Assembly: GCA_963802935.1 (NCBI GenBank)
Contig: CAWDKO010000009.1
Coordinates: 45,297-109,296, forward strand
Length of the DNA: 64,000 bases
Source: an uncultured Solirubrobacterales bacterium
Lineage (GTDB): Bacteria > Actinomycetota > Thermoleophilia > Solirubrobacterales > 70-9
Reading direction: 5' to 3'
This document shows positions 13,295-64,000 of the stretch, piece by piece (the stretch's first letter is position 1; each line of letters opens with the position of its first letter). Below the pieces are notes generated by a model, which was given only the letters and a program-made list of their open reading frames with translations, made no database searches and was not told the DNA's origin. A program made the position numbers and the translations under genes.

Positions 13295-16200
13295 ATGTGG
13301 CGGCAGTTCGCAGCGTTCGTCCTTCTCCTTGTGGCATCGACGGCCGCCTTGCCCCCAGGGCAGCCCTCGGCGGCGCCGGGTCCGTTGGCCACGTTTCCAG
13401 CGAAACGCTCCGGGCAGGAAGTGGCGGAATATGCCCGCACCTTCGACGTTTCTGCCCGGGAGGCGTCGGACACGCTGAACACACAGGAAAAAGGTGCGGG
13501 CGTCGTTGAAGTCCTTCGGCAGACGCTGGGCTCCCAATATGCAGGGATATGGTTCGACAATACGGCCGGCGAATTCGTCGTGCCTTTGGCCGCAAAAAGC
13601 GACGCAATCCGAGTTCAGCGTGCATTCAATGATCTCGGTCTAGCGCCCTCCACATTTCGTCTAGCTGACGCTCGCTTCACTTGGACGCAGCTGGAGAACA
13701 AGAAGGAACGGCTGCTCGAGCAATCCCTGTCAAAGCCTTTCCTGAACGGCGAAATCCAGGCATCGATCGACCCCAGGGCTAACCATGTCAGCGTGACGCT
13801 GTCCGGCACCGCGAATGAGGGGCGGTCAGCTGAGGTGGCAGATGCGGTGAATCAGTACGGTCCCGCAGCGGAAATCGAGAGGAAGAAGTTCAACCCCATT
13901 CCCGTGGCATGCTCTTTTGGCGACTGCGACCCGCCGCTGCGTGGGGGAGTCGCCATTACTCCCAAAAACTCGCCGGGAACCATGTGTTCGGCGGGCTTCA
14001 AGGCTCTGGGCAATGCGAACGGCAACAGATTCGTTTTGACCGCAGGCCATTGCACCTATGGAGTCTCTACATATCTCGCTCAGCCTGCTAGCAGCCCCTT
14101 TGAATCGAAAGAAATTGGACCGGTCGAAGCAACGTACACTAACGCGAGCGGCTACGACGTTGGCCTGATAAAAGCCAATGGGGGTTATTGGGATACCACG
14201 CCATGGCCGACCGAGGTGGTCTACTGGTCCCCGAAAGAATCTTATGAAGCGGTGAATCCTCATGTTGCCATTACCGCCGAAGCCTCCAGCTACATCGGAG
14301 AGTGGGCGTGTCACTCCGGCCAATCGTCGGGCACGTCGTGCGGGACGGTCAAAGAAGTCGATCTTGACCTGTCTTTTGAAACAGAAGGACGACCGCAGAT
14401 CCGTAACGACTTGAGCTTTGTGACCGGACCGGAACTCTGCATAGAAGGCGGTGACAGCGGTGGGCCGGTATTCACGGGGAACACCGCCTTGGGAATAACA
14501 TCCGCTATGGAGGGAGAACTTCCCATTCCCTGCGGGAATGGCGATTACTACAGTGAGATAACCGAAGACTCCGATCTGCTCGGTGTTCACGTCGCTTCAC
14601 GGGTCGGGGCACCTCCCTCCGCGATAACCGAAGGAGTCACATCCGTCGACTTCAGCCAGGCGACGATCAAAGGTACAGTCGATGCCAGTGGCATCCCGAC
14701 GACCTATTACTTCGAATATGGCAAAACCACCGCCTATGGCAGTGCGACCGGATCCGCAAGCGCCGGCTCGGGCTTCCTGCCCGGAACGTTCAGCAGCACC
14801 ATCGGGAGCCTCAGTCCCGGCACCAGCTACCACTACCGGATCGTCGCCACCAACTCTTCCGGCACCTCTTATGGCGCCGACCGTCAGTTCTCCACCCTGA
14901 GCCTCACCCCCAGCGAAGGGGAAGAGGACTACTCGCCCGGCCCACGCTCGACCGTCGACCCGACCAACAACTCGGTCAACGTCTTCTACCGCACCCCATC
15001 GGGCAGCCTCGGCCACCGCTGGCACGCGCCCTGGGAATCGGGCTGGGGCAGCGAGACGCTGGCGGGCTCACTGTCCTCTGAGCCCCATCTGATCGTCGAC
15101 AGGGACGGCGGTATCAACGTCTTCTACCGCACCCCCTCGGGCACCCTCGGCCACAACTGGTGGGAAGCCGGCGGCACCGGCTGGGGCTCGGAGAGCCTCG
15201 GCGGCTCGCTCGCGGCAAACGCCGAACCGCACGCGATCGTCGACTCCAACAAGGTCGTCAACGTCTTCTACCGCACCCCATCGGGCAGCCTCGGCCACCG
15301 CTGGCACGCGCCCTGGGAATCGGGCTGGGGCAGCGAGACGCTGGCGGGCTCGGTTGCCTCAGAACCGCACGCGATCGTCGACAAGGACGGCGGCATCAAC
15401 GTCTTCTACCGCACCCCCTCGGGCACCCTCGGCCACAACTGGTGGGAAGCCGGCGGCACCGGCTGGGGCTCGGAGAGCCTCGGCGGCTCGCTCGCGGCAA
15501 ACGCCGAACCGCACGCGATCGTCGAACCCAACAACTCGGTCCACGTCTTCTACCGCACCGCCTCGGGCAGCCTCGGCCACCGCTGGCACGCGCCCTGGGA
15601 ATCGGGCTGGGGCAGCGAGACGCTGGCGGGCTCACTCGACTCGAGCGCCGAACCGCACGCGATCGTCGACAAGAACGGCGGCGTCAACGTCTTCTACCGC
15701 ACCCCCTCGGGCACCCTCGGCCACAACTGGTGGGAAGTCGGCAACAACGTCTGGGGCTCGGAGGATCTCGGCGGCTCGCTCGCCTCTGAGCCGCACGCGA
15801 TCGTCGACCCGACCAACAACTCGGTCAACGTCTTCTACCGCACCCCATCGGGCAGCCTCGGCCACCGCTGGCACGCGCCCTGGGAATCGGGCTGGGGCAG
15901 CGAGACGCTGGCGGGCTCACTGTCCTCTGAGCCCCATCTGATCGTCGACAGGGACGGCGGTATCAACGTCTTCTACCGCACCCCCTCGGGCACCCTCGGC
16001 CACAACTGGTGGGAAGCCGGCGGCACCGGCTGGGGCTCGGAGAGCCTCGGTGGCTCGCTCGCACCGACCCCCCCGAGCGCCACCACCGGCGCCGCCAGCG
16101 GGGTCGGTGCAAACGAAGCCAAACTCGAAGGAACCGTGAACCCAAATGGCTCACCCACTAGCTACTACTTCGAATACGGTCCGACGACCTCTTATGGCTC

Positions 16201-17037: not shown

Positions 17038-20000
17038 ATGAAAAGAGCACCGAACAACGTGGGGAGCAGCCGGTACAGGACGACGGTGGTCGGACTGGTG
17101 GCGTTGGTGGTTTCTCTCCCCTCTCTTTTTTCCTCGGCCGCGGCGTTGGCGAGTCCAAGGGCCTTTGACGTAGGCGATCTTGATGTACGCAGGGCTGAAG
17201 TACGCGAATACAAGCGCGAATTCGGAGTTTCCGAGTTGCACGCCGAAGAAAGCCTGGAAACCCAGCAGACCGGGCTTGACATGAACCTCGTCGCTCAGCT
17301 CGAATCACTGCTCGGCGCTGACTACGCGGGCGTTTGGTTCGATAATGCCACTGGGGACTTCGTCATTCCGGTGACTCCAGGGGCCGATCGTGACGCTGTT
17401 GTCCAGTCACTCTTCGCAGCGGGCCTTTCAGGGCATTTTCGCTTTACCCCAGCACAGGCAAGCTGGCGGCAGTTGCAGTCCACCCAGAACCAAATCAATG
17501 CGTCGCTGGGCGAGCAGCTTCGCCATGGCACGGTCGAGACCTCGCTCGACCCGCAGACCAATGCGGTACTGGTCAAAACCGCCGATGATATAGGATCAGC
17601 GGGCGCTGCTAGGGCCCAGAACCTTGCGCGGGGCTTTCAGGGTGAAGTCGAGCTCCGCGAGGGGACTGCAAGGGCCCTGAGCGGCCAGTTGGAGGGATGC
17701 AACGATGTCTTCTGCGGACCCTCACTCAGGGGTGGCGTACAGATCTTTGGTTCCAATGCCAAAAACTCCGAAGATTCTTGCACCGCAGGGTTTCGCGCGG
17801 TCAGTCCCACCGGTAACCGGTACCTGCTTACTGCTGGGCACTGTGTGGTGGAAATAGGGGAAGTCGAACCAGCCACGACGACTTGGTACAGCAAAAATGA
17901 CTCCCTTCAAACTTGGAAAATCGGCGACGTCGAGCAGGCAGTATCTCCGATTGATGATTGGGCGAAGATCAGTGTCAATGGGAGCGAATGGGACAAAGGC
18001 CAGTCGGCGAATGAAATCGTCTACTACGGAGAACCTATTTTCGATGCGAACGGGAAAATGATCGGCAAATCGCCTACGGTCGATTCGAACTATGCAATAA
18101 CCGGCGAATCCTCAAGTGTTAAAGGGACTTTTGTCTGTCACTCGGGAATCATGACCGGAACGACCTGTGGACAGGTGACTGCAGTTGGAGTGTCTCACAC
18201 CTGGGCGGGAAACTGGACTATCAATAACTTGAACGAAGCCGTTGGAGTCTGCAGTATCCCGGGTGACAGCGGCGGGCCCTGGTTCAGCGGACACATTGCG
18301 CTGGGCATGCACACTGGTTCGGTCGTTGAATCCAAAACATGCTCGGGCGCCCGGTTCTACACGGACATCACCAGGGCGACCAGTGCACTGGGGGTGTCGA
18401 TCGCCTCCACTGCCTTCCCAACCCCCAGCGAAGGGGAAGAGGACTACTCGCCCGGCCCACGCTCGACCGTCGACCCGACCAACAACTCGGTCAACGTCTT
18501 CTACCGCACCCCATCGGGCAGCCTCGGCCACCGCTGGCACGCGCCCTGGGAATCGGGCTGGGGCAGCGAGACGCTGGCGGGCTCGGTTGCCTCAGAACCG
18601 CACGCGATCGTCGACAGGGACGGCGGTATCAACGTCTTCTACCGCACCCCCTCGGGCACCCTCGGCCACAACTGGTGGGAAGCCGGCGGCACCGGCTGGG
18701 GCTCGGAGAGCCTCGGCGGCTCGCTCGCGGCAAACGCCGAACCGCACGCGATCGTCGACTCCAACAAGGTCGTCAACGTCTTCTACCGCACCCCATCGGG
18801 CAGCCTCGGCCACCGCTGGCACGCGCCCTGGGAATCGGGCTGGGGCAGCGAGACGCTGGCGGGCTCGGTTGCCTCAGAACCGCACGCGATCGTCGACAAG
18901 GACGGCGGCATCAACGTCTTCTACCGCACCCCCTCGGGCACCCTCGGCCACAACTGGTGGGAAGCCGGCGGCACCGGCTGGGGCTCGGAGAGCCTCGGCG
19001 GCTCGCTCGCGGCAAACGCCGAACCGCACGCGATCGTCGAACCCAACAACTCGGTCCACGTCTTCTACCGCACCGCCTCGGGCAGCCTCGGCCACCGCTG
19101 GCACGCGCCCTGGGAATCGGGCTGGGGCAGCGAGACGCTGGCGGGCTCACTCGACTCGAGCGCCGAACCGCACGCGATCGTCGACAAGAACGGCGGCGTC
19201 AACGTCTTCTACCGCACCCCCTCGGGCACCCTCGGCCACAACTGGTGGGAAGTCGGCAACAACGTCTGGGGCTCGGAGGATCTCGGCGGCTCGCTCGCCT
19301 CTGAGCCGCACGCGATCGTCGACCCGACCAACAACTCGGTCAACGTCTTCTACCGCACCCCATCGGGCAGCCTCGGCCACCGCTGGCACGCGCCCTGGGA
19401 ATCGGGCTGGGGCAGCGAGACGCTGGCGGGCTCACTGTCCTCTGAGCCCCATCTGATCGTCGACAGGAACGGCGGTATCAACGTCTTCTACCGCACCCCC
19501 TCGGGCACCCTCGGCCACAACTGGTGGGAAGCCGGCGGCACCGGCTGGGGCTCGGAGAGCCTCGGTGGCTCGCTCGCACCGACCCCCCCGAGCGCCACCA
19601 CCGGCGCCGCCAGCGGGGTCGGTGCAAACGAAGCCAAACTCGAAGGAACCGTGAACCCAAATGGCTCACCCACTAGCTACTACTTCGAATACGGTCCGAC
19701 GACCTCTTATGGCTCAAAAGCGCCGGCCTCTGCGGCAGAAGCTGGCTACGGCACCGCCGCCGTCGCGGTCAGCCAGGCCTTGAGCGGTCTCTCCCCGAGC
19801 ACGACCTACCACTACCGACTGGTCGCCACTGGCCCGGAAGGCACTGCCACCGGTCAGGACAAAACCTTTGCAACCAAAGCGGCGACGGTCGCGAGCCAGC
19901 TGGCGGCGCTTCCCGTCACAGAGCCCTTTGACGGCAGCTCGGGATCGCTCGCCAACTTCGGCTCGAAATGGTCCACGCTGGGCTGGGCCGCGGGAGGCTC

Positions 20001-20638: not shown

Positions 20639-20682
20639 GATGCCGGAGGAGGGACTCGAACCCCCGACACGCGGATTATGAT
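20639..20682 (-). repeat. att-type direct repeat: duplicated 3' half of tRNA-Met
   Basis: GATGCCGGAGGAGGGACTCGAACCCCCGACACGCGGATTATGAT is identical to 26490..26533 (tRNA nt 33-74 plus 2 flanking nt). Confidence 0.9.
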
Positions 20683-20858
20683 GCTGCCGCAGCGGTTGCC
20701 GGGGTTTGCGGCTGTCAGAGCCTTTTGGCGCTAGAGAGCCAATCCGGCGGGTCGGGCCTCTCCTCGTTTTCGGCTATTTCCGGGTGTCTCCTTGCCACCC
20801 CCTTGCCACCCTGCGCTTTTAGGGGCGAAAGCTCAAGCAATCTGAGAGTCTTCCGCCA

Positions 20859-21788
20859 ATGACGAGCAGGCTGACGATCTATTACGGGCAGATATGGCTA
20901 GAGCAGGCGACGCTGTTTTCCGAGTACCCACTTCGGGATGCCGTTGAAGGAGCGGGGCCGGTCAACCGCTACAACCACGATTGGCTGATCGGCAACCTCT
21001 CGGTCGACGAAGGGCGACAAATCCTTGTTGGGAAGCTGGGGTACCCGGAGACTGAACAGCGAACGCGAGAGGACTACGACCCCGCCGAGCAGGCATTTGT
21101 TGAGCAGAATGTGGAGGTGCCCGACGCGGCTTCGGCCGCGTTTGCGCTCAACTATGCATCGGGGGCGCTGGCGTTCGAAGGGACTGACCGCATCGGGCCA
21201 AGGGGCTTCGTCAACCATTTGGTCGCTCTTATGAGAACTGTGGACGAGGGCTTCAAAGGACAGCTAATCCGTATTGCCACCGAGTACCGCGAGTTCCTTG
21301 CGGCGGTGGACAAGGTCACCCGGGTTAGCTTTGAGGTGATCCCCACGAACCCCCGGGATCGCAACATTTTCAAACCGCTGGACGTGGGCATGAAGGCGGC
21401 GAATGCCTCTCGCGAGCGAGTGACCCTAGAGAACGATGAAGGACTCGTCATGCAGCCTCCTGATAGCCGGGACGAAACGACCGACAACCCCGCCATCATG
21501 GGAATAGAGATGAATGACGAGGGCTATGGCAAGGGCTACAAAATCGATGCCAAACGCCAAGGCCGGGACTATCGCTTCGACTCTGAGCAGGGCGGCGGCC
21601 TGCTTCGGGATGTAGTTGAGGGCGCACCAGAAGATGGCGAGTACCGGACGAGTGCGCTGGTCGAGCATCTTGAAGAGAAACGTCTCGATGAGGAAGGGAT
21701 CGGCGACCGCCAGTCTGAGACGGACGAGCCATCTGCGGAGGCGGGAGGGGACGAGCCGCCTGCTGAGGCCGCGCAGGGAGAGGGCTAG
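20859..21788 (+). CDS. hypothetical soluble protein, 309 aa, acidic C-terminal tail; no family recognised
   Basis: Long ORF within the island; stop is 3 nt before the start of the next ORF (operon). Confidence 0.6.
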   Translation: MTSRLTIYYGQIWLEQATLFSEYPLRDAVEGAGPVNRYNHDWLIGNLSVDEGRQILVGKLGYPETEQRTREDYDPAEQAFVEQNVEVPDAASAAFALNYASGALAFEGTDRIGPRGFVNHLVALMRTVDEGFKGQLIRIATEYREFLAAVDKVTRVSFEVIPTNPRDRNIFKPLDVGMKAANASRERVTLENDEGLVMQPPDSRDETTDNPAIMGIEMNDEGYGKGYKIDAKRQGRDYRFDSEQGGGLLRDVVEGAPEDGEYRTSALVEHLEEKRLDEEGIGDRQSETDEPSAEAGGDEPPAEAAQGEG

Positions 21789-21791
21789 CTT

Positions 21792-22385
21792 GTGGCGGTG
21801 ACTTCGCACCGCGACAAGGCTGTGACGCCGCCTGAGGAGGGCGGACAGGATTTCTACGAAGACACGCGCTTCTGGAAGGCGGCGCGCGCGTATGGATTGG
21901 ATCAGTTGATCCTGACCTGGGGCGTTGGAGTCGCGCTCGCGTGTGCAGCGGGCGTTCTGTTTCTTTTCCTCCACGGCGATCTGCCTACTAGCGGCGTCAA
22001 AGCTTTGGCCGTGTCCTACGTCAGCCTGGGGGCCGCGCTATTTGGCATCGTGCTTGCGGGGTTCGCCGTAGTCGCGGCGTTCTTTGACCGCGACTACGTT
22101 GCCAAGCTCCGTGAAGCTGGGACGCTAGGGGACTCGCTATTCGGTTTCTGGTGGGTGGCTGCAATAACGGTTCTAGCCGTGCTTGCCAGCGTTGGACTCA
22201 CTGTCGCCGCATTCGCAGGGGCATCGAAGCCAGTAATGGCTGTTGCGCTCGGGATCGCGACCACGCTATTCGTCGCCAGCCTGGGGGAGGCGCTGTCGCT
22301 CGTTGGCACCATCATGCGGCACGCTCTCTACCGGAGCGAGCTGGCGCGACGCGATGACATTCGCATTACGCAGCCAAAGCCATAG
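21792..22385 (+). CDS. hypothetical integral membrane protein, 197 aa, about 4 TM helices
   Basis: GTG 21792; hydrophobic segments GVGVALACAAGVLFLFL, ALAVSYVSLGAALFGIVLAGFAVVAAFF, FGFWWVAAITVLAVLASVGLTVAAFA, VMAVALGIATTLFVASLGEALSLVG. Confidence 0.6.
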   Translation: MAVTSHRDKAVTPPEEGGQDFYEDTRFWKAARAYGLDQLILTWGVGVALACAAGVLFLFLHGDLPTSGVKALAVSYVSLGAALFGIVLAGFAVVAAFFDRDYVAKLREAGTLGDSLFGFWWVAAITVLAVLASVGLTVAAFAGASKPVMAVALGIATTLFVASLGEALSLVGTIMRHALYRSELARRDDIRITQPKP

Positions 22386-22639
22386 GCCTCGGCTGCTCCA
22401 TCTCTATGGCCTCGTCCAAAAAGGCGGCGCTTCCCACGCCTGCGTCCATCAGATGGATGTAGGTCTTGAGGGTGAAGCCGGGATCGGCATGGCCTAGCCA
22501 AGCCTGAACCTGCTTCACGTTCCGGCCCGCCTCAAAAAGCAAGCTGGCGCAGGTGTGGCGGAACGTGTGGAAGGACACGGTTGACCGCGTTCTTCTCTTG
22601 CCCTTGACCTCCACCTCTACCTTGAACCCGGCCCCGATG
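22366..22639 (-). pseudogene. tyrosine recombinase/integrase, C-terminal fragment only
   Basis: FHTFRHTCASLL (HxxR box) and LGHADPGFTLKTYIH (catalytic Tyr box); reading frame runs into the IS3 end at 22640; no N-terminal part on the other side of the IS. Confidence 0.7.
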
Positions 22640-22668
22640 TGAGCCGGACCAGGTCCACGGAGACTTGT

Positions 22669-23577
22669 TTAGTTGGATCCAATCTTCATCTTGAGGGAGA
22701 TCAGTTGATCCCTCTGTCGAACGTATAGGCCCTCGAACTCAGCGGGTGAGACGTCGCCGAGGGATTCGTGCAGGCGCTCGTTGTTGAACCAGGAGACGTA
22801 TTCGACGACGGCCAGCTCCAGCTGCGAGCGAGAGCGCCAGACCCGGTCGGCGATCAGCTCGGTCTTGAAGGTGTCGACGAAGCTCTCGGCCATCGCGTTG
22901 TCATAGGCATCGCCGACGGCGCCGACCGAGGCGAGGACGCCGTGGTCGGTGAGCGTCTGGGTGTAGTCGGCCGAGGTGTATTGAGAGCCGCGGTTGGTGT
23001 GGGCCACGAGTTGGAAGTCGGCGCCGGGCTCGCGTTGGCCCAGTGCCATCCGCAGCGCGTCGAGCACCAGGTCGGTGCGCATGTGGGAGGCCAGCTGCCA
23101 GCCGACGACCTTGCGCGAGAAGGCGTCGATCACGAAGGAGAAGAACGAAGCGCCCTCCCAGGAGCGCAAGTAGGTGAAGTCCCCGACCCAGAGACGGTCG
23201 GGGCCTGGCGCTGTGAAGTCGCGCTGGACCAGGTCGGGGCGGCGCAGGGCCGAGGGGTCCGGTGTTGTCGTGCGCCAGGGGCGCCCACGGCGCTTGGCGC
23301 CTTGGATCCCGGCCTCTCGCATCAGCCGGGCCACCCGGCCGCGGCCGACCTCCTCGCCGGCGCGCTGCAGGGCGATCCACATCCGCCGGTAGCCGTAGGC
23401 GCAGTAGTTGGCCTCGTGGATCTCGGCGATCAGCTCGAGCAGGCGCTCGTCCTCGAGGGCGCGAGCGGAGCGCTTGTCCTTGGCGCGCTGGTAGTAGGCG
23501 GAGGCCGACACCTCCGGGGTCTTGCAGATCGGCTCGACCCCGAAGCGCTCGCGATGCTCCTCGATGTAGGAGCTCAC
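22669..23577 (-). CDS. IS3-family transposase OrfB (DDE integrase core)
   Basis: YGYRRM...PDRLWVGDFTYL...HTNRGSQYTS...YDNAMAESF... rve/DDE domain motifs. Confidence 0.85.
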   Translation of the reverse strand: MSSYIEEHRERFGVEPICKTPEVSASAYYQRAKDKRSARALEDERLLELIAEIHEANYCAYGYRRMWIALQRAGEEVGRGRVARLMREAGIQGAKRRGRPWRTTTPDPSALRRPDLVQRDFTAPGPDRLWVGDFTYLRSWEGASFFSFVIDAFSRKVVGWQLASHMRTDLVLDALRMALGQREPGADFQLVAHTNRGSQYTSADYTQTLTDHGVLASVGAVGDAYDNAMAESFVDTFKTELIADRVWRSRSQLELAVVEYVSWFNNERLHESLGDVSPAEFEGLYVRQRDQLISLKMKIGSN

Positions 23578-23876
23578 TTCGTTCGGCGTGGGTCGAGCTC
23601 GGCGGCGAAAAAGGCAGACGCCGACTTCAAGATGTCGTTGGCCCTGCGCAGCTCGCGCACCTCACCGCGTAGGGCCTTCAGCTCCTCGCGCTCGGAGCTG
23701 TCGAGCAGGTCCTTGCGTTTGCCCTCATCGGCTTCGGCCTGGCGCACCCACTTGCGCAGGGTCTCGGGGTGGATCCCGAGGTCGCGCGCTACGTGAGCGA
23801 TGGGGCGGCCGGAGTCGGCGACCATCCGGGCCCCGCGATCGAGCAGCTCATCGGGGTATTTCTTCTGTCGTGGCAT
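23574..23876 (-). CDS. IS3-family transposase OrfA (HTH)
   Basis: MPRQKKYPDELLDRGARMV...LRKWVRQAE...LRRANDILKSASAFFAAELD is typical IS3 OrfA. Confidence 0.8.
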   Translation of the reverse strand: MPRQKKYPDELLDRGARMVADSGRPIAHVARDLGIHPETLRKWVRQAEADEGKRKDLLDSSEREELKALRGEVRELRRANDILKSASAFFAAELDPRRTK

Positions 23877-24018
23877 GGCTTGGGAGTTCCCTTCTTCCAG
23901 GTAGGAATCCTGGTTTCTGGGTCTCCGTCAAACCTGGTCCGGCTCACCTTGCTGGCGGCTTTGCGCTTGGCGTCGTCGGGCATTCCACGGAGCCTAACCC
24001 CTGATCCCAGTCCCGAAG

Positions 24019-24642
24019 CTACAGGCCAAGCTCCTGCGCGTGGGCAAATGACTCTGCGAACTTCTTCGATCGGTGACTGAAATCAAGCTCTCCCATGGTG
24101 TTTCGATCAGTCCAGTAGTAGCCCTCCAGCTGGCCTACCGGCTCACCCGCAATGTCGAGCTTAAAGCTCCCGTGGTGCACCTCGCTACGCTCACGGACAG
24201 AGGCTCGCGGCGTGTTTCTGTACTGCGCGACCAACTGGTATTGCCCGCAGCCGTCATCCTCGATCGTTGCAGTGGTCGAGCATGACTTTGACTCTTTGGT
24301 AATCAGATTGGCGGTCACGCTCCAAAACGTCTGGCGGATGACCAAGTAGACCTCCGGGTCGGGGTCCCTGCGTTGGCCCGTCTCGGGGTTGATCCAGTTT
24401 GAGGCGAGTCGGCCACGCCAGGTGCCACGCAGGTCGGGCCGCTTACTAAGCCCGCGGCCAACTTTTGGAAGTCGCCATAGGAAGTGGTCGAAGGCGAGAA
24501 CGAGCAGACCGGCCACTGAACTGGCTGCTCCGATAGGGGCGAACAGTTCAGTGGTCGGCAGGCCGCGAGCCAGAAAGGCGATCAGATAGACGCCTGCAAC
24601 GACAAGGACAATGGCCTGAATGAAGACCCGGGACGGTCGCAT
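24019..24642 (-). CDS. CBASS effector, Cap15-like (N-terminal 2 TM plus beta-strand-rich C-terminal domain)
   Basis: ATG overlaps the cyclase stop (TGATG); two TM helices (VFIQAIVLVVAGVYLIAFLA, IGAASSVAGLLVLAFDHFLW) then GTWRGRL.S...IRQTFWSV...YRNTP...HHGSFKL...LEGYYWTDR pattern. Confidence 0.6.
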   Translation of the reverse strand: MRPSRVFIQAIVLVVAGVYLIAFLARGLPTTELFAPIGAASSVAGLLVLAFDHFLWRLPKVGRGLSKRPDLRGTWRGRLASNWINPETGQRRDPDPEVYLVIRQTFWSVTANLITKESKSCSTTATIEDDGCGQYQLVAQYRNTPRASVRERSEVHHGSFKLDIAGEPVGQLEGYYWTDRNTMGELDFSHRSKKFAESFAHAQELGL

Positions 24643-25562
24643 CACTCGAAGCCGACGTAGTTCCAGGCCTTTGAAGCGAAGTCGTGGGCGTCTTGGTAGC
24701 TCCAATTCTGGCCGCTCCAGAACAGGAACTTGATCGCATTCGCCTCAAGCCAATCGTCTGAGGTCACGCAGCCGTCGTTCAGCGTCTCGTTGAAGATGTG
24801 CGCAAGGGCGGCTCGAACGCGGGCTTTCCAAGTTGCGCCGTCGAATTTCGAGTTTGGCACGTTCCAGACTGAGGACTCGATCAAAAAGGAGGGAACCTCT
24901 TTGATGATGCCCTCGTCAACCATCTCGTTCTCCAAGCGCTTCAAGATGCGCACGACACGCTTGTAGCGACGCGAGGTTGCGTCGTTCTTTCTCGTGCCCT
25001 GTTCGAGGTGCTGCTTCGGGTAGTTAACGATGCGCTCGGCGGGATTCCGGTCGTTGTAGAGCCGGATGCCATCGTTATAGCCCGTGCGGCTGGTCCAGGT
25101 GCGCTCGGTAACACAGGGAACTACGTCGGCCGGCAGGCGGCCCGTGCTCTCTGCGACCCGAATCGCCTTGCTTCCACGGTCGACTTCCCCTGCACTGAAA
25201 TACGCGATGAGGGCGTGCTCGACGTCATCCTTGAAACCGGCCAGCGTGGCGTCGCCCTCATACGGCGTCACGCCGACATCGGCCATGGTCAGCCCCTCCG
25301 CCGCATGGATGAAGCGGTTCTTGAAGAACGTCGTCAACTCGACCGCGATGTCGACGTCGCTGTCGCGGACGACATTGGTGAAGTTGGGGTAAGACCCCTT
25401 CGCGTAGACCTCGAAGTCGTACTTGCTGAGCCGATCACTTGCTCGGAGGGCGTCTCCGATCGCGCGACAGGTGCGTCTGTACTTCTCTTCCTCGCTGTCG
25501 GAGGCTTTGCCTTTCCAACTCGTGAATCTGGCCTCCCAGTCACGGGCTACCTGCGTTGACAT
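24642..25562 (-). CDS. CBASS cGAS/DncV-like nucleotidyltransferase (CD-NTase, SMODS family)
   Basis: KGSYPNFTNVVRDSDVDIAV (GS...DxD), third acidic residue LPADVVPC, C-terminal SFLIESSVWNVP; ATG 25562 after GGAGA. Confidence 0.8.
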   Translation of the reverse strand: MSTQVARDWEARFTSWKGKASDSEEEKYRRTCRAIGDALRASDRLSKYDFEVYAKGSYPNFTNVVRDSDVDIAVELTTFFKNRFIHAAEGLTMADVGVTPYEGDATLAGFKDDVEHALIAYFSAGEVDRGSKAIRVAESTGRLPADVVPCVTERTWTSRTGYNDGIRLYNDRNPAERIVNYPKQHLEQGTRKNDATSRRYKRVVRILKRLENEMVDEGIIKEVPSFLIESSVWNVPNSKFDGATWKARVRAALAHIFNETLNDGCVTSDDWLEANAIKFLFWSGQNWSYQDAHDFASKAWNYVGFE

Positions 25563-25786
25563 TGATCTCCCTTCGCGCTTCCGCCCGTGACTGCCCATGC
25601 CTGCCAGCTGATAATTCCGCCGACACTCTTGTTAACTTTCAACTTCACGAGGTTCGCGTTGATTTCTAGGTTGGTACGCATCAGAACCTCTAAGGCTACG
25701 ATTTCTCAGCGGCGGAAAGATCACTCGTCACTGGCCGCAAATTGCGGCTTTCTCGGGGGCGTTTTGAATCGAGGTATCCTTTAGCC

Positions 25787-25978
25787 ATGGCGCACGCCAC
25801 CAAAGCCGACAATGCAGCTACCGAGCGTCAAGCAGCGATAGAGCGGACCCGAGGCATGTTCGCCCACCTGGCGCCCGGCGAAAGCTTGGCCGACGAGCTA
25901 ATCGCTGGTCGGCGCGCGGAAGCCCGCGCGGAAGATCGCGAGGCGGCCGACGAAGCCCGGCGCCTCCGTGGCAAGTAG
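25787..25978 (+). CDS. vapB: VapB-type antitoxin
   Basis: 63-aa ORF overlapping the PIN gene start; C-terminal LADELIAGRRAEARAEDRE resembles VapB tails. Confidence 0.55.
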   Translation: MAHATKADNAATERQAAIERTRGMFAHLAPGESLADELIAGRRAEARAEDREAADEARRLRGK

Positions 25979-26387
25979 CGAGACGCCGGCATCGGTCCTC
26001 GATGCCTCGGCGCTGCTTGCTCATCTCAATGAGGAGAAAGGCGCATCGGTTGTCCGGCGCGCCATGGCGGACGGCGCAGCTATCAGCATCGTCAATTGGA
26101 TAGAGGTCCTGTCGAAAATCGCCCAACGTGGCGAAGACCCTGAACTTGCCGCTGCCGAGATGAAGGGCGCCGGACTCATCGGCAGTGTCGTGACCATCGA
26201 GGCCGTGACCGAACAGGATTCGATCGAAATTGCCCGCTTGCGGCCCTTGACCAAGAAGCAAGGACTTTCACTCGCGGATCGCGCTTGCTTGGCCCTTGCA
26301 ATTCGTCTTGACGTTCCTACCGTGACCGGCGATCGGGACTGGCAGGCCCTTCCCGGGGTAGGCGTTGCGGTCAAGCTCATCCGCTGA
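25968..26387 (+). CDS. vapC: PIN-domain ribonuclease toxin
   Basis: VLDASALLA...NWIEV...SLADRACLALA...TGDRDW carry the conserved acidic PIN residues. Confidence 0.8.
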   Translation: MASSETPASVLDASALLAHLNEEKGASVVRRAMADGAAISIVNWIEVLSKIAQRGEDPELAAAEMKGAGLIGSVVTIEAVTEQDSIEIARLRPLTKKQGLSLADRACLALAIRLDVPTVTGDRDWQALPGVGVAVKLIR

Positions 26388-26491
26388 TGCGGTGGTTCTT
26401 AAGGCCAGACCCTTGCCACATTCCTTGCCACCCCCGTCAAATTGGAGGCCAGCGGAGGGCCGGATCGGCTGCATTCCGCGCTGCCAAGCGA

Positions 26492-26565
26492 TGCCGGAGG
26501 AGGGACTCGAACCCCCGACACGCGGATTATGATTCCGCTGCTCTAACCAGCTGAGCTACTCCGGC
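26492..26565 (-). tRNA. tRNA-Met (anticodon CAT; tRNA-Ile2/lysidine not excluded), 74 nt, CCA not encoded
   Basis: Hand-folded cloverleaf: GCCGGAG-TA-GCTC-AGCTGGTTA-GAGC-A-GCGGA-ATCATAA-TCCGC-GTGTC-GGGGG-TTCGAGT-CCCTC-CTCCGGC-A. Confidence 0.9.
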
Positions 26566-32933: not shown

Positions 32934-33209
32934 GCGACGCCCAGGCCCGTCCCGCCGAGCGGCGGCCCGTCCATGCATCAACGCGCCCCGCTGTTTACAG
33001 GCCGCCGGCCGGTGGTACGGTTGAACCGAGGCTCGAGCCCGTGCGAGAGCCGTCTCACCGTTTGACCCAACACAAACGGCGCGGGAGCCGAGAGTCTTCG
33101 GGCCCCTTGGGGTCAGGAGCAGGCACCCACCTTCACTTGAAGGGATCAAAGCCAGAGGCGGCAACGGCGGGCTGGGGCCTCTTTTGCGTTTCTCGGGGGG
33201 CGAGTTCGG

Positions 33210-33256
33210 TCGAACCCAGCCTTTTTGTTCCCATGGAGCAAAAAGGCTGGGTTCGA
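33210..33256. other. perfect 18-bp stem / 11-nt loop hairpin
   Basis: TCGAACCCAGCCTTTTTG-ttcccatggag-CAAAAAGGCTGGGTTCGA, 19 nt upstream of the ATG at 33275. Confidence 0.8.
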
Positions 33257-33274
33257 ATCGAGCGGGACAGGAAA

Positions 33275-38870: not shown

Positions 38871-40288
38871 CGACTGGCTCGGCGGCGACCCGTTCGCCAG
38901 CCCCGACGATCCGGCCGCGCGCGAGCGCGAGCAGCGCCGGCGCGAGCGCGAAGAGCGGCGCCGTGGGCGCGAGGAGCGGCAGGCGAAAAAGGAGGAGGCT
39001 GCGGGGGGAGGTCCGGGGGATGGCTCGCCGTCGCAACAGCGGGGAGGCTCCGTCGAGCCATCCCCCGGATCTCCGCACGAACCGCCTGCTGCCGCGGAGT
39101 CGCTCTCGCGCACGTCCGAGGAGGAGTTCTGGGACGAGGCCCCGGAGCCGTCTGCCGCTGCGCCGCCGCTCGACGACGATGCTGCGTTCATGCGCAGCAA
39201 CGGCCGCGAGCCGCGCCGGCCGAGCGGCAGCGGCATGCTCGGCGCGCTGCGGCGCCATCCCTTCCGCATCTTCGCGGCGATCGCCGTCCTCTTTGTGCTC
39301 TGGTTCCTCTTCGCCCTCTTCCAACCCCTCCACGGCGACGGCTCCGGCAAGGTCGCGGTGACGATCCCGAAGGGCGCCAGCGTCAGCGAAGTTGGCGACC
39401 TGCTCGGCGAGAAAGGGGTGATCGACAGCTCGACCCTGTTCCAGATCCGGGTCACGATCGCCGGCAAGCGTTCCGAGCTCTACCCGGGCCGCTACACCCT
39501 GGCCGAGGGGATGTCCTACGGCGCCGCGATCGATGCCCTCTCTCAGCCACCGATCAAACGCACGGTCGCGGTCACGATCCCCGAGGGGTACAGTCGCGCC
39601 CAGGCGGCGCAGCTGGTCGAGGAACTCGGCCTCAAAGGCGACTACACCGAGGAGACGATCCGCTCGCGCTACCTCAACCCGGCCAAATACGGCGCCGAGG
39701 ACGCCGCCAACCTCGAGGGCTTCCTTTTCCCCGACACCTTCGAAATGAAGCCGAACGCGCCCGCGGCCGACCTGGTTCAGCTGCAGCTGGAGGATTTCAA
39801 GCGGCGCATCAAGGGCGTCGACATGGGCTACGCGCGCTCGAAGAACCTGACGGTCTACGACGTGCTGATCATCGCCTCGCTGGTCGAGGACGAGGCGGGG
39901 ATCCCGAGCCAGCGCAAGCAGGTCGCCGCGGTCGTCTACAACCGCCTGCGGGAGGAGATCCCGCTGGGGATCGACGCGACGATCCGCTTCGCGGTCGGCA
40001 ACTACACCCAGCCGCTGACCGAATCCGAGCTCGCGGTCGACTCGCCCTACAACACCCGCCTCAACTCCGGGCTGCCGCCCGGGCCGATCAACAGCCCCGG
40101 CCTCGAGGCGATCGAGGCCGCCGCGCACCCCGCCAGGAGCGACTACCTCTATTACGTGAACGAACCGGGGCACCTGCGGCAAGCTCGCTTTCTCGAAGAA
40201 CAACGCCGAATTCGAAGCCGATGTCGCTCGCTACAACGCGGCGCGCGAAGCGGCCGGCGGCAACGAGCCGGACACCTGCGGGGAGTAG
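38863..40288 (+). pseudogene. mltG: endolytic murein transglycosylase MltG (YceG-like) with low-complexity N-terminus; frameshift near 40167-40171
   Basis: TM FRIFAAIAVLFVLWFLFALF, YceG core (IIASLVEDEAG, YNTRLNSGLPPGPINSPG). After YLYYVNEPG the correct continuation TCGKLAFSKNNAEFEADVARYN..* is in the +1 frame and ends at TAG 40286. The track ORF instead reads through into aroE. Confidence 0.75.
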
Positions 40289-45448: not shown

Positions 45449-46540
45449 ATGCTCTGGACTTCCCAGACCCTGGTCGCGCGGCCGGTGAGCCCGCGATCGC
45501 GCCGACGCCCTGCGGCCGAGACGCTGGTCTCGATCCACGAGGAGGCGAGGCGTGAGCGTCTACTCGACATGGAGACGCGGGTGCGGCGCTACCGCACGGC
45601 GTGCTTCGCGATCCTCGCTGTCTCGATCGCTCTAGGAGGATCGTCGGATGTCGGCTGGTGGTGGGTGGTGCCGATGGCGGCCGGCCTTGCCGGCTTCGCC
45701 GTTGCTGATCGCTTCATGCGGGCCAGCCAGCATCCCGCGATCTGGGTGGCGGGGGCATGGGCCGCGCTGCCCGCCTTGCTGGCTGCCGCTGCCCTGCTGA
45801 CGGGCGGTGCCACCAGCCCGGTCCTGGTCTGGTTCGCGCTGCCCGCCGTGACCCTCGGCTTCCGCTTCGAGCCGCGCGGGATGGTGCTCGGCACCACCTA
45901 CGTGATCGCGATGTTCCTGGCCTGCACGGTTGTCCCCGACCCTGCGGCGGCGCTGGAGCACCGCCAGGCGCTGATTGCCATTGCCGCCCTGATCCTCAGC
46001 ACCGTGATCCTTACCGGGGCCCTGGTCGAGTCGGAGCAGGCGCACCGGCGACGCTCGACGCTCGATCCGCTTACCGGCCTCTTCAACCGCAACGCTCTGG
46101 AGCAGCGGCTCTCGGAGCTGAACGGCCAGCCCTGCGACCTCGACGAGGGTCTCTCGCACGCCCTGCTGCTCTGCGACCTCGACCACTTCAAGCGCGTCAA
46201 CGACCAGCTCGGGCATGCCGCCGGCGACGCGGTCCTGCAGGACGTCGCCTACACGATGCGGTCGGCGCTGCAGGCGGGCGACACTATCTACCGCGTGGGC
46301 GGCGAGGAGATCCTGGTGATCCTCCCCGGTGCCGGTCGCGAGGACGCGATCGAGATCGCCGAGCGGTTGCGCCAGGAGGTCCACGACCGCCGCCCGGTCG
46401 GCGTGCCGGTCACGGTCAGCATCGGCGTCGCCGTCTCCGAACCGGACCGGGTCGACACCGACGACCTCGTCGCCCGCGCCGACGCCGCGCTCTACGCCGC
46501 CAAGGCCAGCGGCCGCGACACGGTTTTCGTCGACAGCTAG
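45449..46540 (+). CDS. membrane-anchored diguanylate cyclase (GGDEF domain, GGEEI variant)
   Basis: About 5 N-terminal TM segments, DPLTGLFNR, DLDHFKRVND, RVGGEEILVILPG; start may be the internal Met (METRVRRY). Confidence 0.8.
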   Translation: MLWTSQTLVARPVSPRSRRRPAAETLVSIHEEARRERLLDMETRVRRYRTACFAILAVSIALGGSSDVGWWWVVPMAAGLAGFAVADRFMRASQHPAIWVAGAWAALPALLAAAALLTGGATSPVLVWFALPAVTLGFRFEPRGMVLGTTYVIAMFLACTVVPDPAAALEHRQALIAIAALILSTVILTGALVESEQAHRRRSTLDPLTGLFNRNALEQRLSELNGQPCDLDEGLSHALLLCDLDHFKRVNDQLGHAAGDAVLQDVAYTMRSALQAGDTIYRVGGEEILVILPGAGREDAIEIAERLRQEVHDRRPVGVPVTVSIGVAVSEPDRVDTDDLVARADAALYAAKASGRDTVFVDS

Positions 46541-46641
46541 GGCGAGTCCCACAAGGGGTTCGAACAACAGAAGCTCACGGGAGACGCTCGGTGACTGTCC
46601 CACGGGGACGGTCTGGTCATGTCGTCTTCAGCCCAGCTTCC

Positions 46642-46767
46642 GAGGGGCGGAGGGCTGGTGGGGTCTCCGAACGTTTTGTGCCGCTGGCCGAGTAGGGACG
46701 TCGGACGGCTCGTCCGCGATACAGCCAGTCAGGCAAGTGAGGAGACCCCACCAGCCCTCCGCCCCTC
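46642..46767 (+). repeat. structured intergenic repeat, copy A (27-bp closing helix around a conserved core)
   Basis: Arms 46642-46668 / 46741-46767 are perfectly complementary; cores GAACGTTTTGTGCCGCTGGCCG and CAGCCAGTCAGGCAAGTGA. Confidence 0.85.
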
Positions 46768-47824
46768 AGCGGCTCAGGTCGACGTCGGCGGTCAGCCGCG
46801 TGGCGAATGCCGCGAGCAGTTCGACCGCCGCCTCGACGTCGCGCAGGTCGACCATCTCCACCGGCGAGTGCATGTAGCGGAGTGGGATCGAGACGAGACC
46901 GGTCGGGATGCCCGAGCGGGAGATCTGCAGCACGTCGGCGTCGGTACTGGTGCCGCGGCCGCTGGCGCTGATCGAGTGCTCGATCCCCTCGGCCTCTGCA
47001 GTCTCAACCAGCAGCTCGAAGACCTTGGGGGAGAGGGTGGAGCCGCGACCGATCGCCGGCCCGGAGCCAAGTGGGTGGGTGCCGATCTCCTTCTCGTCGA
47101 CCCCGGGCGCGTCGGTTGCGTGGGTGACGTCGACGGCGATCGCGATATCTGGACGGATCTCGAAGGCGGCGGTGCGGGCCCCGAAGAGGCCGATCTCCTC
47201 CTGTACGGCGGCAACAGCGGCGAAGGATCCTTCGAGGTCCCCGCCCTGGTGGGCACGCCGCAGGCTCTCCAGGGCCACGTAGGCGCCGAGGCGGTTGTCC
47301 ATCGCCCGGGAGACGAGGCGATCGCCGACGAGGGGCACCGGCTCGGCAGCGATCACGACGGGGTCTCCGACCCGGATCAGCTCCGCCGCCTCGCCGCGGT
47401 CGCCGGCCCCGATGTCGATATGCAGGCCCTTCAGCTCGACGACCTTCTTACGCTGGTCGGGCTCGAGCAGATGGATCGGCTTGCGGCCGACCACGCCTGG
47501 CACCAGCCCCTCTTTGCCGCGGATCTCTACCCGCTGACCGACCAGGATCTGGGGGTCCCAGCCGCCGACCGGCGCAAACCAGAGGAACCCCTTCTCGTCG
47601 ATATGGGTGACGACCAACCCGATCTCGTCGATGTGTCCGACCACCGCCAGCAGCGGGGCGCCGTCGCCGACGCGGGCTATGGAGGAGCCGATGCCGTCGC
47701 TGCTGACCTCGGCAAAGGAGGCGGCGTCGCGCCAGATCGTCGCCGCGGGGCCCTCGTACCCAGAGGGCGCGCCGGCGCGCAGAAGTTCGTCGAGCAATGG
47801 AGGTGTCTGGCTCAAGGTTCGCAA
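46766..47824 (-). CDS. M42-family aminopeptidase (FrvX/cellulase-like)
   Basis: GHIDEIGLVVTHIDEKGFL, AMDNRLG, EEIGLFGA motifs. Confidence 0.85.
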   Translation of the reverse strand: MRTLSQTPPLLDELLRAGAPSGYEGPAATIWRDAASFAEVSSDGIGSSIARVGDGAPLLAVVGHIDEIGLVVTHIDEKGFLWFAPVGGWDPQILVGQRVEIRGKEGLVPGVVGRKPIHLLEPDQRKKVVELKGLHIDIGAGDRGEAAELIRVGDPVVIAAEPVPLVGDRLVSRAMDNRLGAYVALESLRRAHQGGDLEGSFAAVAAVQEEIGLFGARTAAFEIRPDIAIAVDVTHATDAPGVDEKEIGTHPLGSGPAIGRGSTLSPKVFELLVETAEAEGIEHSISASGRGTSTDADVLQISRSGIPTGLVSIPLRYMHSPVEMVDLRDVEAAVELLAAFATRLTADVDLSR

Positions 47825-52640: not shown

Positions 52641-53201
52641 GTGATCAGCACCAACCAGTTCAAAAACGGCACCCATATCGAGATCGACGGGAAGATCTGG
52701 AAGATCATCGAGTTCCAGCACGTCAAGCCGGGCAAGGGCGGCGCCTTCGTGCGGACCAAACTGCGGCGGATCGAGGACGGCTCGGTGATCGACAAAACCT
52801 TCCGGGCGGGGGAGAAGTTCCGGCCGGTGAGGACCGAATCGAAGAAGATGCAGTACCTCTACGACTCCGGCGAGGCGGCGGTTTTCATGGACAGTCGCGA
52901 CTACGAGCAGATCGAAATCCCCAGCGACGTGCTCGGCGACTCGATGCAGTGGGTGCTGCCCAACGCCGAGGTCGAGATCCTCTTCGTCGACGAGCAGCCA
53001 TCCGACCTGCAGCTCCCGAGCGCGATCGACATGAGGGTGACCCAGACCGACCCCGGCGTCAAAGGCGACACCGCCTCCGGCGGTGGCAACAAGCCGGCGA
53101 CGCTGGAGTCCGGCGTTGTGGTGCAGGTGCCGCTCTTCATCGAGGAGGGCGAATCCGTGAGGGTCGACACGCGCAGCGGCGAGTACGTCTCCCGCGCCTG
53201 A
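52641..53201 (+). CDS. efp: elongation factor P
   Basis: ISTNQFKNGTHIEIDGKIWKIIEFQHVKPGKGGAFVRTKLR...; GTG 52641. Confidence 0.92.
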   Translation: MISTNQFKNGTHIEIDGKIWKIIEFQHVKPGKGGAFVRTKLRRIEDGSVIDKTFRAGEKFRPVRTESKKMQYLYDSGEAAVFMDSRDYEQIEIPSDVLGDSMQWVLPNAEVEILFVDEQPSDLQLPSAIDMRVTQTDPGVKGDTASGGGNKPATLESGVVVQVPLFIEEGESVRVDTRSGEYVSRA

Positions 53202-53235
53202 GAAGGATCAGCGAAACTCGCCGAGCGGGGCAGAA

Positions 53236-53348
53236 GCGGGGGCCGGTGGGGCCTCCTCACTTGCCTGACTGGCTGCATCGCCGCAGGCCATCCGACGTCC
53301 CTGTGCGGCCAGCGGCACAAAACGTTCGGAGGCCCCACCGGCCCCCGC
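53236..53348 (-). repeat. structured intergenic repeat, copy B (inverted orientation, 21-bp closing helix)
   Basis: Arms 53236-53256 / 53328-53348 are perfectly complementary; the reverse complement contains the same two conserved cores. Confidence 0.85.
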
Positions 53349-53405
53349 CTCTGGGAAGCTGAGCAGAAGACGGCAGCCGTGATTCGAAGCGCCTATGGGC
53401 TCGGC

Positions 53406-53523
53406 GGGTGGATGTCGGCTGCCCCTCTGAACGTTTTGTGCCGCTGGCCGAGAGCTCCTTTTCGGACGAGCGGCGGCAATACAGCCAGGCAGGCAAGTGA
53501 AGAGGGGCAGCCGACATCCACCC
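53406..53523 (+). repeat. structured intergenic repeat, copy C (22-bp closing helix)
   Basis: Arms 53406-53427 / 53502-53523 are perfectly complementary; cores GAACGTTTTGTGCCGCTGGCCG and CAGCCAGGCAGGCAAGTGA. Confidence 0.85.
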
Positions 53524-53573
53524 GACGCGAGCTCCTCGCTAGGCCCGTCCACCAAAACCGGGAGAATGGGCCG

Positions 53574-53948
53574 ATGCGCCGCTCCGACCAACGCCGCGAC
53601 GCCGTTTTCGCCAGCTACCAGCGCGACGTCACCGGGCGCCCGCTGGCGGAGCTGATCGCCGACGCGCGACCGCTGACCCGGGAGCTGGCGGAGGGCGTCG
53701 ACGAGGAGCGCGAAGAGCTCGACCAGACGATCGCCGAATACGCCAAGGGCTGGACGGTCGACCGGATCGCGCCGCTGGACCTGAACGTGATGCGGGTGGC
53801 GCTGTACGAGATCGAGCACGGGGTCCCGCACGAGGTCGCGATCGACGAGGCAGTCGAGATCGCGAAGGAGTACTGCGGGGCCGATGCGCCCAAGTTCATC
53901 AACGGCATCCTCGGCGCGATCGTGCGCGAGCGGGAGCCGGCGCAATGA
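53574..53948 (+). CDS. nusB: transcription antitermination factor NusB
   Basis: RRDAVFASYQ...LDLNVMRVALYEI...VAIDEAVEIAKEYCG...FINGILG. Confidence 0.88.
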   Translation: MRRSDQRRDAVFASYQRDVTGRPLAELIADARPLTRELAEGVDEEREELDQTIAEYAKGWTVDRIAPLDLNVMRVALYEIEHGVPHEVAIDEAVEIAKEYCGADAPKFINGILGAIVREREPAQ

Positions 53949-63830: not shown

Positions 63831-64000
63831 ATATGTATCTCTATATATGTGGATCGGTGGGAGGTGGGTGAGCCCTGTTTGTGCCGCGGGCGCCGATGTG
63901 GGAAGCATCGGGGCCATATGACGGCGCAAGACTCGACCTAAAAGTTTTGGTGCTTCCTACGTCGGCACCTCCACTCGAATCCTTGAACAGCGTACGAACA

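Follow-up and report, generated by a model that had tools for sequence, protein, structure and literature searches.

Three short intergenic segments in a 64,000-nt window of the genome of an uncultured Solirubrobacterales bacterium (contig CAWDKO010000009.1; "the window" hereafter denotes this whole stretch) carry the same internal cores, each enclosed by a long and perfectly paired outer helix, and raise the question of what kind of element conserves the interior of a hairpin while the sequence of its stem changes. We found that these segments, named A, B and C, are members of an undescribed family of hairpin elements of ~115-150 nt that occurs only in Solirubrobacterales soil bacteria. The family is probably a strand-specific structured element, made as RNA and with a host function, that has also spread as a repeat.

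Element A (46642-46767, plus strand) is a solo copy of the B subtype, located between two convergent genes identified by Pfam: a GGDEF gene that ends at 46540 and an M42 peptidase gene on the minus strand with its stop codon (TCA) at 46766-46768. It consists, all on the plus strand, of the 5' arm of a closing helix, P1 (46642-46668), the 5' junction GAACGTTTTG (46669-46678), the 5' strand of a second helix, P2 (TGCCGCTGGC, 46679-46688), an apical region (46689-46723), the 3' strand of P2 (46724-46735), the 3' junction AGTGA (46736-46740) and the 3' arm of P1 (46741-46767), the last 2 nt of which fall within the M42 stop codon. A leader of 101 nt (46541-46641, plus strand), co-inserted with A, separates it from the GGDEF stop codon (46538-46540); as read from the sequence, it shares homology with the B leader over its final ~40 nt (CACGG..CGTCTTC.GC.CAGCTTCC) and contains three AGCT-N-GGGNG motifs. 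Elements B (53236-53348, minus strand) and C (53406-53523, plus strand) both lie inside the efp-nusB spacer, as the left and right members of a head-to-head pair whose 5' ends are separated by 57 nt (53349-53405); on its minus strand this spacer contains AGCTTCC, the motif of the B leader. The 3' end of B faces the stop codon of efp, which ends at 53201, and the element starts 34 nt past it; C has a different P1 subtype, and 50 nt separate its 3' end from the nusB start that follows (53574). The original prediction had placed the elements at gene ends, with A overlapping the M42 stop codon and B just after efp, and all of this proved correct.

Exact matching recovered the 22-nt core GAACGTTTTGTGCCGCTGGCCG three times in the window, at 46669-46690 (plus), 53306-53327 (minus) and 53429-53450 (plus), and the 19-nt core three times in the same elements, against chance expectations from shuffles of 0.00 and 0.04 respectively, so that the predicted identity of the 22-nt core in the three copies and the predicted recurrence of the 19-nt core were both recovered. 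P1 is perfect over 27 bp in A (46642-46668 with 46741-46767), over 21 bp in B (or 26 bp with one G.T, 53231-53353) and over 24 bp in C (53405-53524), in agreement with the 21-27 bp expected. Minimum free energies were -93.4 (A), -82.0 (B) and -84.0 (C) kcal/mol, with z-scores against shuffles of -9.5, -6.5 and -10.3, and the opposite strands folded nearly as stably. The further claim that the helix is completely different in every copy did not stand: A and B have a common inner helix (GGGC[T/C]GGTGGGG[T/C]CTCC) with 15 of 17 positions alike and both differences compensated on the other arm, all three copies match the family-wide P1 consensus, and what is truly copy-specific is the outermost 3-10 bp only.

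A scan of the whole window with the covariance model described below, with filters off, returned A, B and C only (130, 126 and 130 bits, the next match scoring 25 bits). Weak model matches at 38993-39090, 63878-63982 and 33195-33271 were rejected as unrelated hairpins. At the first two of these places the window contains long hairpins (39007-39075 and 63892-63966, with stems of 21 bp and ~20 bp) that have stem-only weak model scores and no family core. Near the third, a 6S RNA (33028-33182; Rfam, 51.7 bits) is directly followed by a 28-bp near-perfect hairpin with A5/T5 runs (33204-33262), which looks like a bidirectional terminator unrelated to the head-to-head family. Elsewhere in the window, two ~1.2-kb blocks (14906-16153 and 18421-19668) are 97-100% identical with internal periods of 144 nt and 282 nt, and probably represent a duplicated gene for a repeat-domain protein.

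We searched for the family using an exact 19-mer from the core against one genome per species, yielding 69 loci, of which 59 were true, nearly all from Solirubrobacterales or Thermoleophilia MAGs; the other ~10 were discarded as chance matches in unrelated phyla that did not have the 3' core. In this exact-core scan, copy number ranged from ~40 loci in MGR_bin420 and 13 in SMAG_U14692 to one in most other genomes. A covariance model built from 69 copies then identified ~95 sense copies in the loci, from ~20 Solirubrobacterales MAGs, including partner copies with a core unlike the search word. As the loci were picked by an exact core 19-mer, the conservation of that segment is partly ascertained; the partner copies found by the model alone show the same conservation, with a compensated variant. 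The original prediction implied further copies with covariation outside the window, and these exist, both P1 and P2 covarying among the ~95 copies. The intergenic regions of MGR_bin420 are repeat mosaics (in the element-adjacent spacers of L011, L025, L033, L050 and L056, and in L006, L042 and L065), and this genome also has two other hairpin repeat families (GGTTGAGCTTTTC..GAAAAGCTCAACC and CCCGTGGTTCCTTTTG..CAAAAGGAACCACGGG), a short palindrome (CCGTCCCTCGGAAGCTTCCGAGGGACGG) and arrays of AAGCTTCC motifs ~20 nt apart.

A comparison of the three copies and of a second interior type with Rfam 15 (4227 models), at the gathering threshold and at E<=10, gave no family match, in keeping with the earlier remark that the core was not recognisable from any known RNA family. 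Sub-threshold matches were to generic miRNA-precursor hairpins (15-40 bits, against thresholds of 60-168) and to Termite-flg (15.5 bits, against a threshold of 40). ARAGORN found no tRNA-like signal, no Y_RNA model matched and no Ro-like gene was present among the neighbours examined; searches of viral contigs and of plasmids gave no match to the family, and a literature search that included sequence strings found no description matching it.

RNAalifold predicted P1 and an inner bulged helix, P2. P1 is a near-perfect closing helix of 20-38 bp (consensus GGAGGGTCGGGTGCCCCTCC / GGAGGGGCACCCGACCCTCC), whose 5' extensions are always G-rich and mutually alike (GGGGNGGTT); inside it lie a nearly invariant asymmetric internal loop (5' GAACGUUUUG / 3' AGUGA), the 10-bp bulged helix P2 (UGCCGCUGGC / GCCAG-N-C-A-GGCA) and an apical region of ~40 nt with a conserved CUCGGACGG motif. 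Across 80 copies, 98.0% of cells were paired, compared with 83.2% in shuffles and 37-52% when the partner was slid, and changes on both sides occurred in 24 of 30 pairs, including all 20 P1 pairs; not one of 500 shuffles reached any of the observed covariation measures. In P2, U-A changed to C-G in 9 copies, G-C to A-U in 4 and C-G to G-C in 4, and two variants were seen in copies found independently of the search word, namely UGCC/GGCA to CGCC/GGCG (9 copies) and CUGGC/GCCAG to CUAGG/CCUAG or CUACG/CGUAG (4 copies). A column-pair scan of the apical 40 nt found no third covarying helix, and the "variable GC hairpin" once placed between the cores accordingly lacks covariation support; the region holds the conserved CTCGGACGG motif instead. 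Conserved internal loops inside covarying helices characterise a single strand that folds and is under selection, and the earlier argument that conserved loops with covarying stems mark a selected structure is therefore sustained. The copies have a homologous outer helix, which diverges through compensatory substitutions. In MGR_bin420, a conserved unit of 112 nt has complementary sequence of 3-10 bp on its two sides that is specific to each copy.

Four positions that flank P1 (G36, A37, G111 and A112) are each at least 90% conserved, and G36-A37 and G111-A112 could form tandem sheared pairs with a 3-nt bulge, in a k-turn-like arrangement; there are 8 extra nucleotides on the non-bulged strand beside them, unlike in a canonical k-turn. 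In L011 the conserved G-A/G-A positions are both changed to Watson-Crick partners. A sister type (L013:4304-4452, L005:3339-3486 and L005:3603-3749) has only P1 and the junction in common with the main type: its junction is GAACG(U/A)UUUG / AGUGA and its interior is wholly different (GCGGAGGNGGAG ... GACGAGGUACCG), and it also forms a head-to-head pair. That this type keeps the junction suggests that the junction is the functional module.

The two strands of the element were compared by the mismatches tolerated in its helices. In the inner 18 bp of P1, scored symmetrically over 82 copies, G.U pairs outnumber A.C pairs by 40 to 12; counted as distinct events the asymmetry is weaker, 17 to 10, the copies being related. 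P2 has 27 G.U and no A.C. With G.U so far above A.C, the strand carrying GAACGTTTTG is the better paired, which is suggestive evidence, and not a formal probability, that this is the strand that folds; it is antisense to the adjacent gene. The asymmetry points equally to an RNA of that sense and to the same DNA strand when single-stranded, and it is our sole ground for inferring transcription and its direction.

The organising unit of the family is the head-to-head pair, held in a strict orientation toward the neighbouring genes. All 30 pairs of adjacent copies within 1 kb are arranged as minus then plus, B and C forming one such pair, and 60 of the 95 copies belong to head-to-head pairs, with gaps between model hits of 28-475 nt. 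The two members differ in P1 subtype, and the spacers between them are poorly conserved across species. Of the 83 copies that do not lie at a locus end, 51 are followed within 60 nt of the 3' end by a convergent gene's stop codon (median distance 19 nt), and just one has a stop on its own strand at most 60 nt from the 5' end; this orientation rule, 51 to 1, follows from the pair architecture, in which the outward-facing ends are always 3' ends. Copies are exclusively intergenic, and the normal unit occupies a short intergenic region, mostly between convergent genes, each 3' end abutting its neighbour's stop codon. This codon is TAG in 38 of 55 cases, against a background of 44%. Insertion at the TA of stop codons was considered and rejected, since orthologues account for many of the cases and the elements lie anywhere from 0 to 56 nt from the stop.

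A promoter scan found no sigma-70-like promoter in the leaders or the spacer. B has no co-directional upstream gene, and its transcription would therefore need a promoter of its own. A terminator scan found no canonical terminator or U-tract after P1 on either strand; the lone "hit" was the 5' arm of B followed by an internal GUUUUG and was discarded. Local hairpins within each arm are 75.9% paired, compared with 75.0% in shuffles, and show no covariation. The simple REP-like terminator role first proposed for the elements is thus disfavoured by the missing U-tract, by arms that do not self-fold in a REP-like manner and by a folding strand that is antisense to the gene.

We reconstructed the history of both window loci from close relatives. 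EF-P homologues 91-95% identical were traced to their contigs, and in six relatives the efp-nusB spacer measures 17-53 nt, against 372 nt here; these short spacers end in ..AGAATG....ATG and contain no hairpin, and that of L075 (TTCGGGAGAATGGGCCG) is equal to the right flank in the window. The inserted block (approximately 53236-53558, ~323-340 nt) comprises B, the spacer, C and ~35 nt. Its left flank is GGGGCAGAA (53227-53235) and its right flank CGGGAGAA (53559-53566), and the two may represent an imperfect 8-9-bp target duplication. Paired loci in other genomes were considered as efp-nusB orthologues, which they are not. At the other locus, the stop codons of the GGDEF and M42 genes of three relatives either overlap or are separated by 6-8 nt, compared with 225 nt in the window; the same C-termini (VDS and VDLSR, each followed by the stop) are present, the block 46541-46765 is absent (L074, L079 and L080) and the empty sites contain no hairpin. 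With six empty efp-nusB sites and three empty GGDEF/M42 sites in close relatives, A and the B/C pair are insertions in this lineage, recently inserted in this genome. The earlier case against a MITE, that a MITE would have conserved termini, consequently fails, and presence or absence at orthologous sites is as seen for MITEs. No consistent direct repeat that could mark a target-site duplication was found among 25 pairs.

One pair behaves differently. It is syntenic in about 15-17 species, where it is flanked by a 299-aa gene for which Pfam gave no hit and by a zinc-ribbon ORF of 87 aa, with a GT4 glycosyltransferase and cytochrome c oxidase subunits II and I as neighbours (assigned from motifs in ORF translations, without Pfam), and the same subtype adjoins the same gene in every species. 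In ten orthologous copies of this "home" pair the core is 79% identical overall, with junction and P2 near-invariant, and P1 is 74% identical with pairing kept, while the flanks are 39% identical (saturated) and adjacent third codon positions 69%. These figures indicate vertical inheritance under purifying selection. Most of these genomes have no exact-core locus other than the pair, and a purely selfish, recently spread repeat does not explain its conservation there. In some species one member of the home pair has been lost or displaced (L053:3431-3971 and L002:3901-4375), and at these loci lower-GC DNA with small hydrophobic ORFs is inserted between the elements.

Set beside known systems, the family appears REP/BIME/REPIN-like or Correia-like in placement and pairing, and like an orphan structured RNA in what it conserves; it lacks the defining features examined, namely REP-like arms, a target duplication, a U-tract, attC boxes and a match to any Rfam model. 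Like the REP/BIME/REPIN sequences of Proteobacteria, which are mobilised by RAYT, the elements are extragenic, lineage-specific and multi-copy, form inverted units in mosaic pairs with specific linkers, fold as a long hairpin of two inverted arms around a ~70-nt spacer with pairing maintained, and sit at gene 3' ends between convergent genes. Unlike them, their arms are no REP-like palindromes, a GTAG-type terminal motif is lacking, conservation is highest in the internal loops and P2 and not in the arms, the pair is made of two complete hairpin elements and not of two REPs pairing together, and the host phylum is Actinomycetota. A RAYT-like or other cognate protein had been suggested as a partner, but none was found beside the copies in 59 loci, where no protein family or transposase-like ORF was recurrent.

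With Correia/NEMIS elements of Neisseria and ERIC of enterobacteria the family shares a 100-150-bp intergenic size, inverted ends that fold when transcribed and insertion polymorphism between related genomes; an ability to affect neighbouring transcripts, known for those elements, may be listed as a further likeness. Conserved terminal inverted repeats and a TA duplication are features of the Neisseria and enterobacterial elements, whereas here no consistent duplication is seen, the termini drift by compensation, orientation is strict and pairs are head-to-head. An autonomous parent IS was found neither in the loci nor in viral contigs or plasmids. The IS3 transposase at 22669-23577 of the window is unrelated. 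That gene (minus strand) lies, together with a gene for a Cap15 cyclic-dinucleotide-receptor protein (24019-24705, minus strand), in a ~5.9-kb island of low GC content (20639-26541, 59-62% against ~70%) bounded by a 52-nt direct repeat (94% identical) that corresponds to the 3' half of a tRNA-Met gene (26492-26565, minus strand); this is probably a defence island of the CBASS type that integrated at the tRNA.

Integron attC sites and the attP hairpin of CTX phage similarly favour structure over stem sequence, are strand-specific with conserved unpaired bases and lie directly after an ORF in a fixed orientation. However, attC conserves its outer R''/R' boxes and varies centrally, whereas here the outer part varies and the centre is conserved; the RYYYAAC/GTTRRRY outer-box pattern was not seen when the sequence was read for it, and the neighbours are syntenic housekeeping genes and not cassettes, with no integrase nearby. 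Orphan RNA motifs of the Breaker/Weinberg type have the same compensated closing helix and invariant internal-loop nucleotides, and those with k-turn-like protein-binding loops have a conserved G-A/G-A beside a helix and a 3-nt bulge on one strand; they differ from the present family in that it is multi-copy, insertion-polymorphic and paired head-to-head.

We tentatively prefer a scheme, itself still short of an even chance, in which a strand-specific structured element is organised in pairs that send RNA outward, each RNA carrying a recognition module and a P1 that acts as an insulator. The molecule that folds would be RNA of the same sequence as the GAACGUUUUG strand, made by transcription that begins at the centre of the pair and runs outward, or by read-through. 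Its internal loop, P2 and apical motif would form the module recognised by a trans-acting protein, and P1, needing pairing only, would drift in sequence by compensatory change and cap the transcript just ahead of the end of the neighbouring gene. Apart from this mechanism, the genomes themselves show one pair inherited vertically in many species under purifying selection and, in some genomes including this one, units copied into new intergenic sites. A bolder version, which we consider unlikely, would make the family a new class of bacterial structured RNA gene whose product, built on a k-turn-like platform, would serve as a guide RNA or as a scaffold for protein binding; it would be kept as a divergent gene pair at the conserved home locus and would seed dispersed copies, in the way that SINEs derive from a functional RNA gene. 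In that case the element would be a host ncRNA and also the substrate of a copying mechanism that regenerates a perfectly paired closing helix. The main rival, rather unlikely in our estimate, is a non-autonomous DNA transposon of the MITE/REPIN kind: a transposase whose gene lies elsewhere in the genome (RAYT/IS200-like or other) would recognise the two long structured ends of the pair in the form of folded single-stranded DNA, its need for a hairpin would keep the helices complementary, and solo copies would be deletion derivatives. This rival accounts for mobility and strand bias: filled and empty sites show insertion, copy number goes from one locus per genome to at least 40 in MGR_bin420, location is exclusively intergenic, the pair offers two distinct "ends" in fixed inverted orientation, and G.T tolerance on one strand also suits single-stranded DNA hairpins. 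The possible imperfect duplication of 8-9 bp at the B/C insertion would fit, as would the two inverted arms around a ~72-nt core, a REPIN geometry reportedly described by Bertels and Rainey in 2011. It leaves unexplained the absence of a consistent target-site duplication in 25 pairs and the conservation that peaks in internal loops instead of termini; the arms show no REP-like folding, the 59 loci have no recurrent transposase-like ORF and no autonomous element, viral or plasmid match turned up. The single-locus pair also speaks against it, with ~15 species in which the syntenic pair is the sole exact-core locus found and is under purifying selection.

Two further readings were considered. 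A purely cis-acting 3'-end hairpin (a terminator/insulator or mRNA stabiliser), selected only for a long GC-rich stem and with a core conserved by recent ancestry, would suit the stop codons at a median of 19 nt, the high stability of the stems on both strands and the insertion of units where the convergent stops of relatives overlap or abut, and hence have no terminator; high-GC Actinobacteria reportedly use U-less hairpins. We nevertheless consider this reading improbable, as no U-tract follows the helix and as the reading leaves the near-invariant asymmetric loops between saturated flanks, the P2 covariation and the 51-to-1 orientation unexplained, places the better-paired strand antisense to the adjacent gene and would put a harmful terminator in the efp-nusB operon. 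Least credible is the view that the outer helix is target DNA, the element inserting into the loops of pre-existing terminator hairpins as IS1397 does into REP loops. The 112-nt unit of MGR_bin420 with its 3-10 bp of copy-specific complementary flanks, and the location just after stop codons, could be read in this way, but the empty sites of A (stops overlapping or 6-8 nt apart) and of B/C (17-53 nt) have no hairpin, which contradicts such an origin for the window copies. The 5' extensions of P1, being always G-rich and mutually similar (GGGGNGGTT), are element sequence that has diverged and no random piece of the target.

For the Solirubrobacterales, Actinomycetota that abound in soil, there is almost no molecular genetics. 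In combining a well-supported covarying structure of ~95 copies, an unusual head-to-head architecture, a vertically inherited home pair and lineage-specific bursts, the family offers a tractable case of a functional structured element turned into a proliferating repeat, or the reverse, and bears on how perfectly paired yet fast-diverging helices are kept up. If an RNA, it would constitute a new orphan class with a likely protein partner; if the end of a folded-DNA transposon, it would indicate that Actinomycetota have a mobilisation system still to be characterised. These regions, which are otherwise read through by ORF callers, can be annotated with the covariance model. In the window, a mechanical ORF of 189 aa (53379-53948) runs through C into nusB, and a tblastn search with it retrieved other copies at 45-69% identity for which the repeat alone is responsible, making it an annotation trap.
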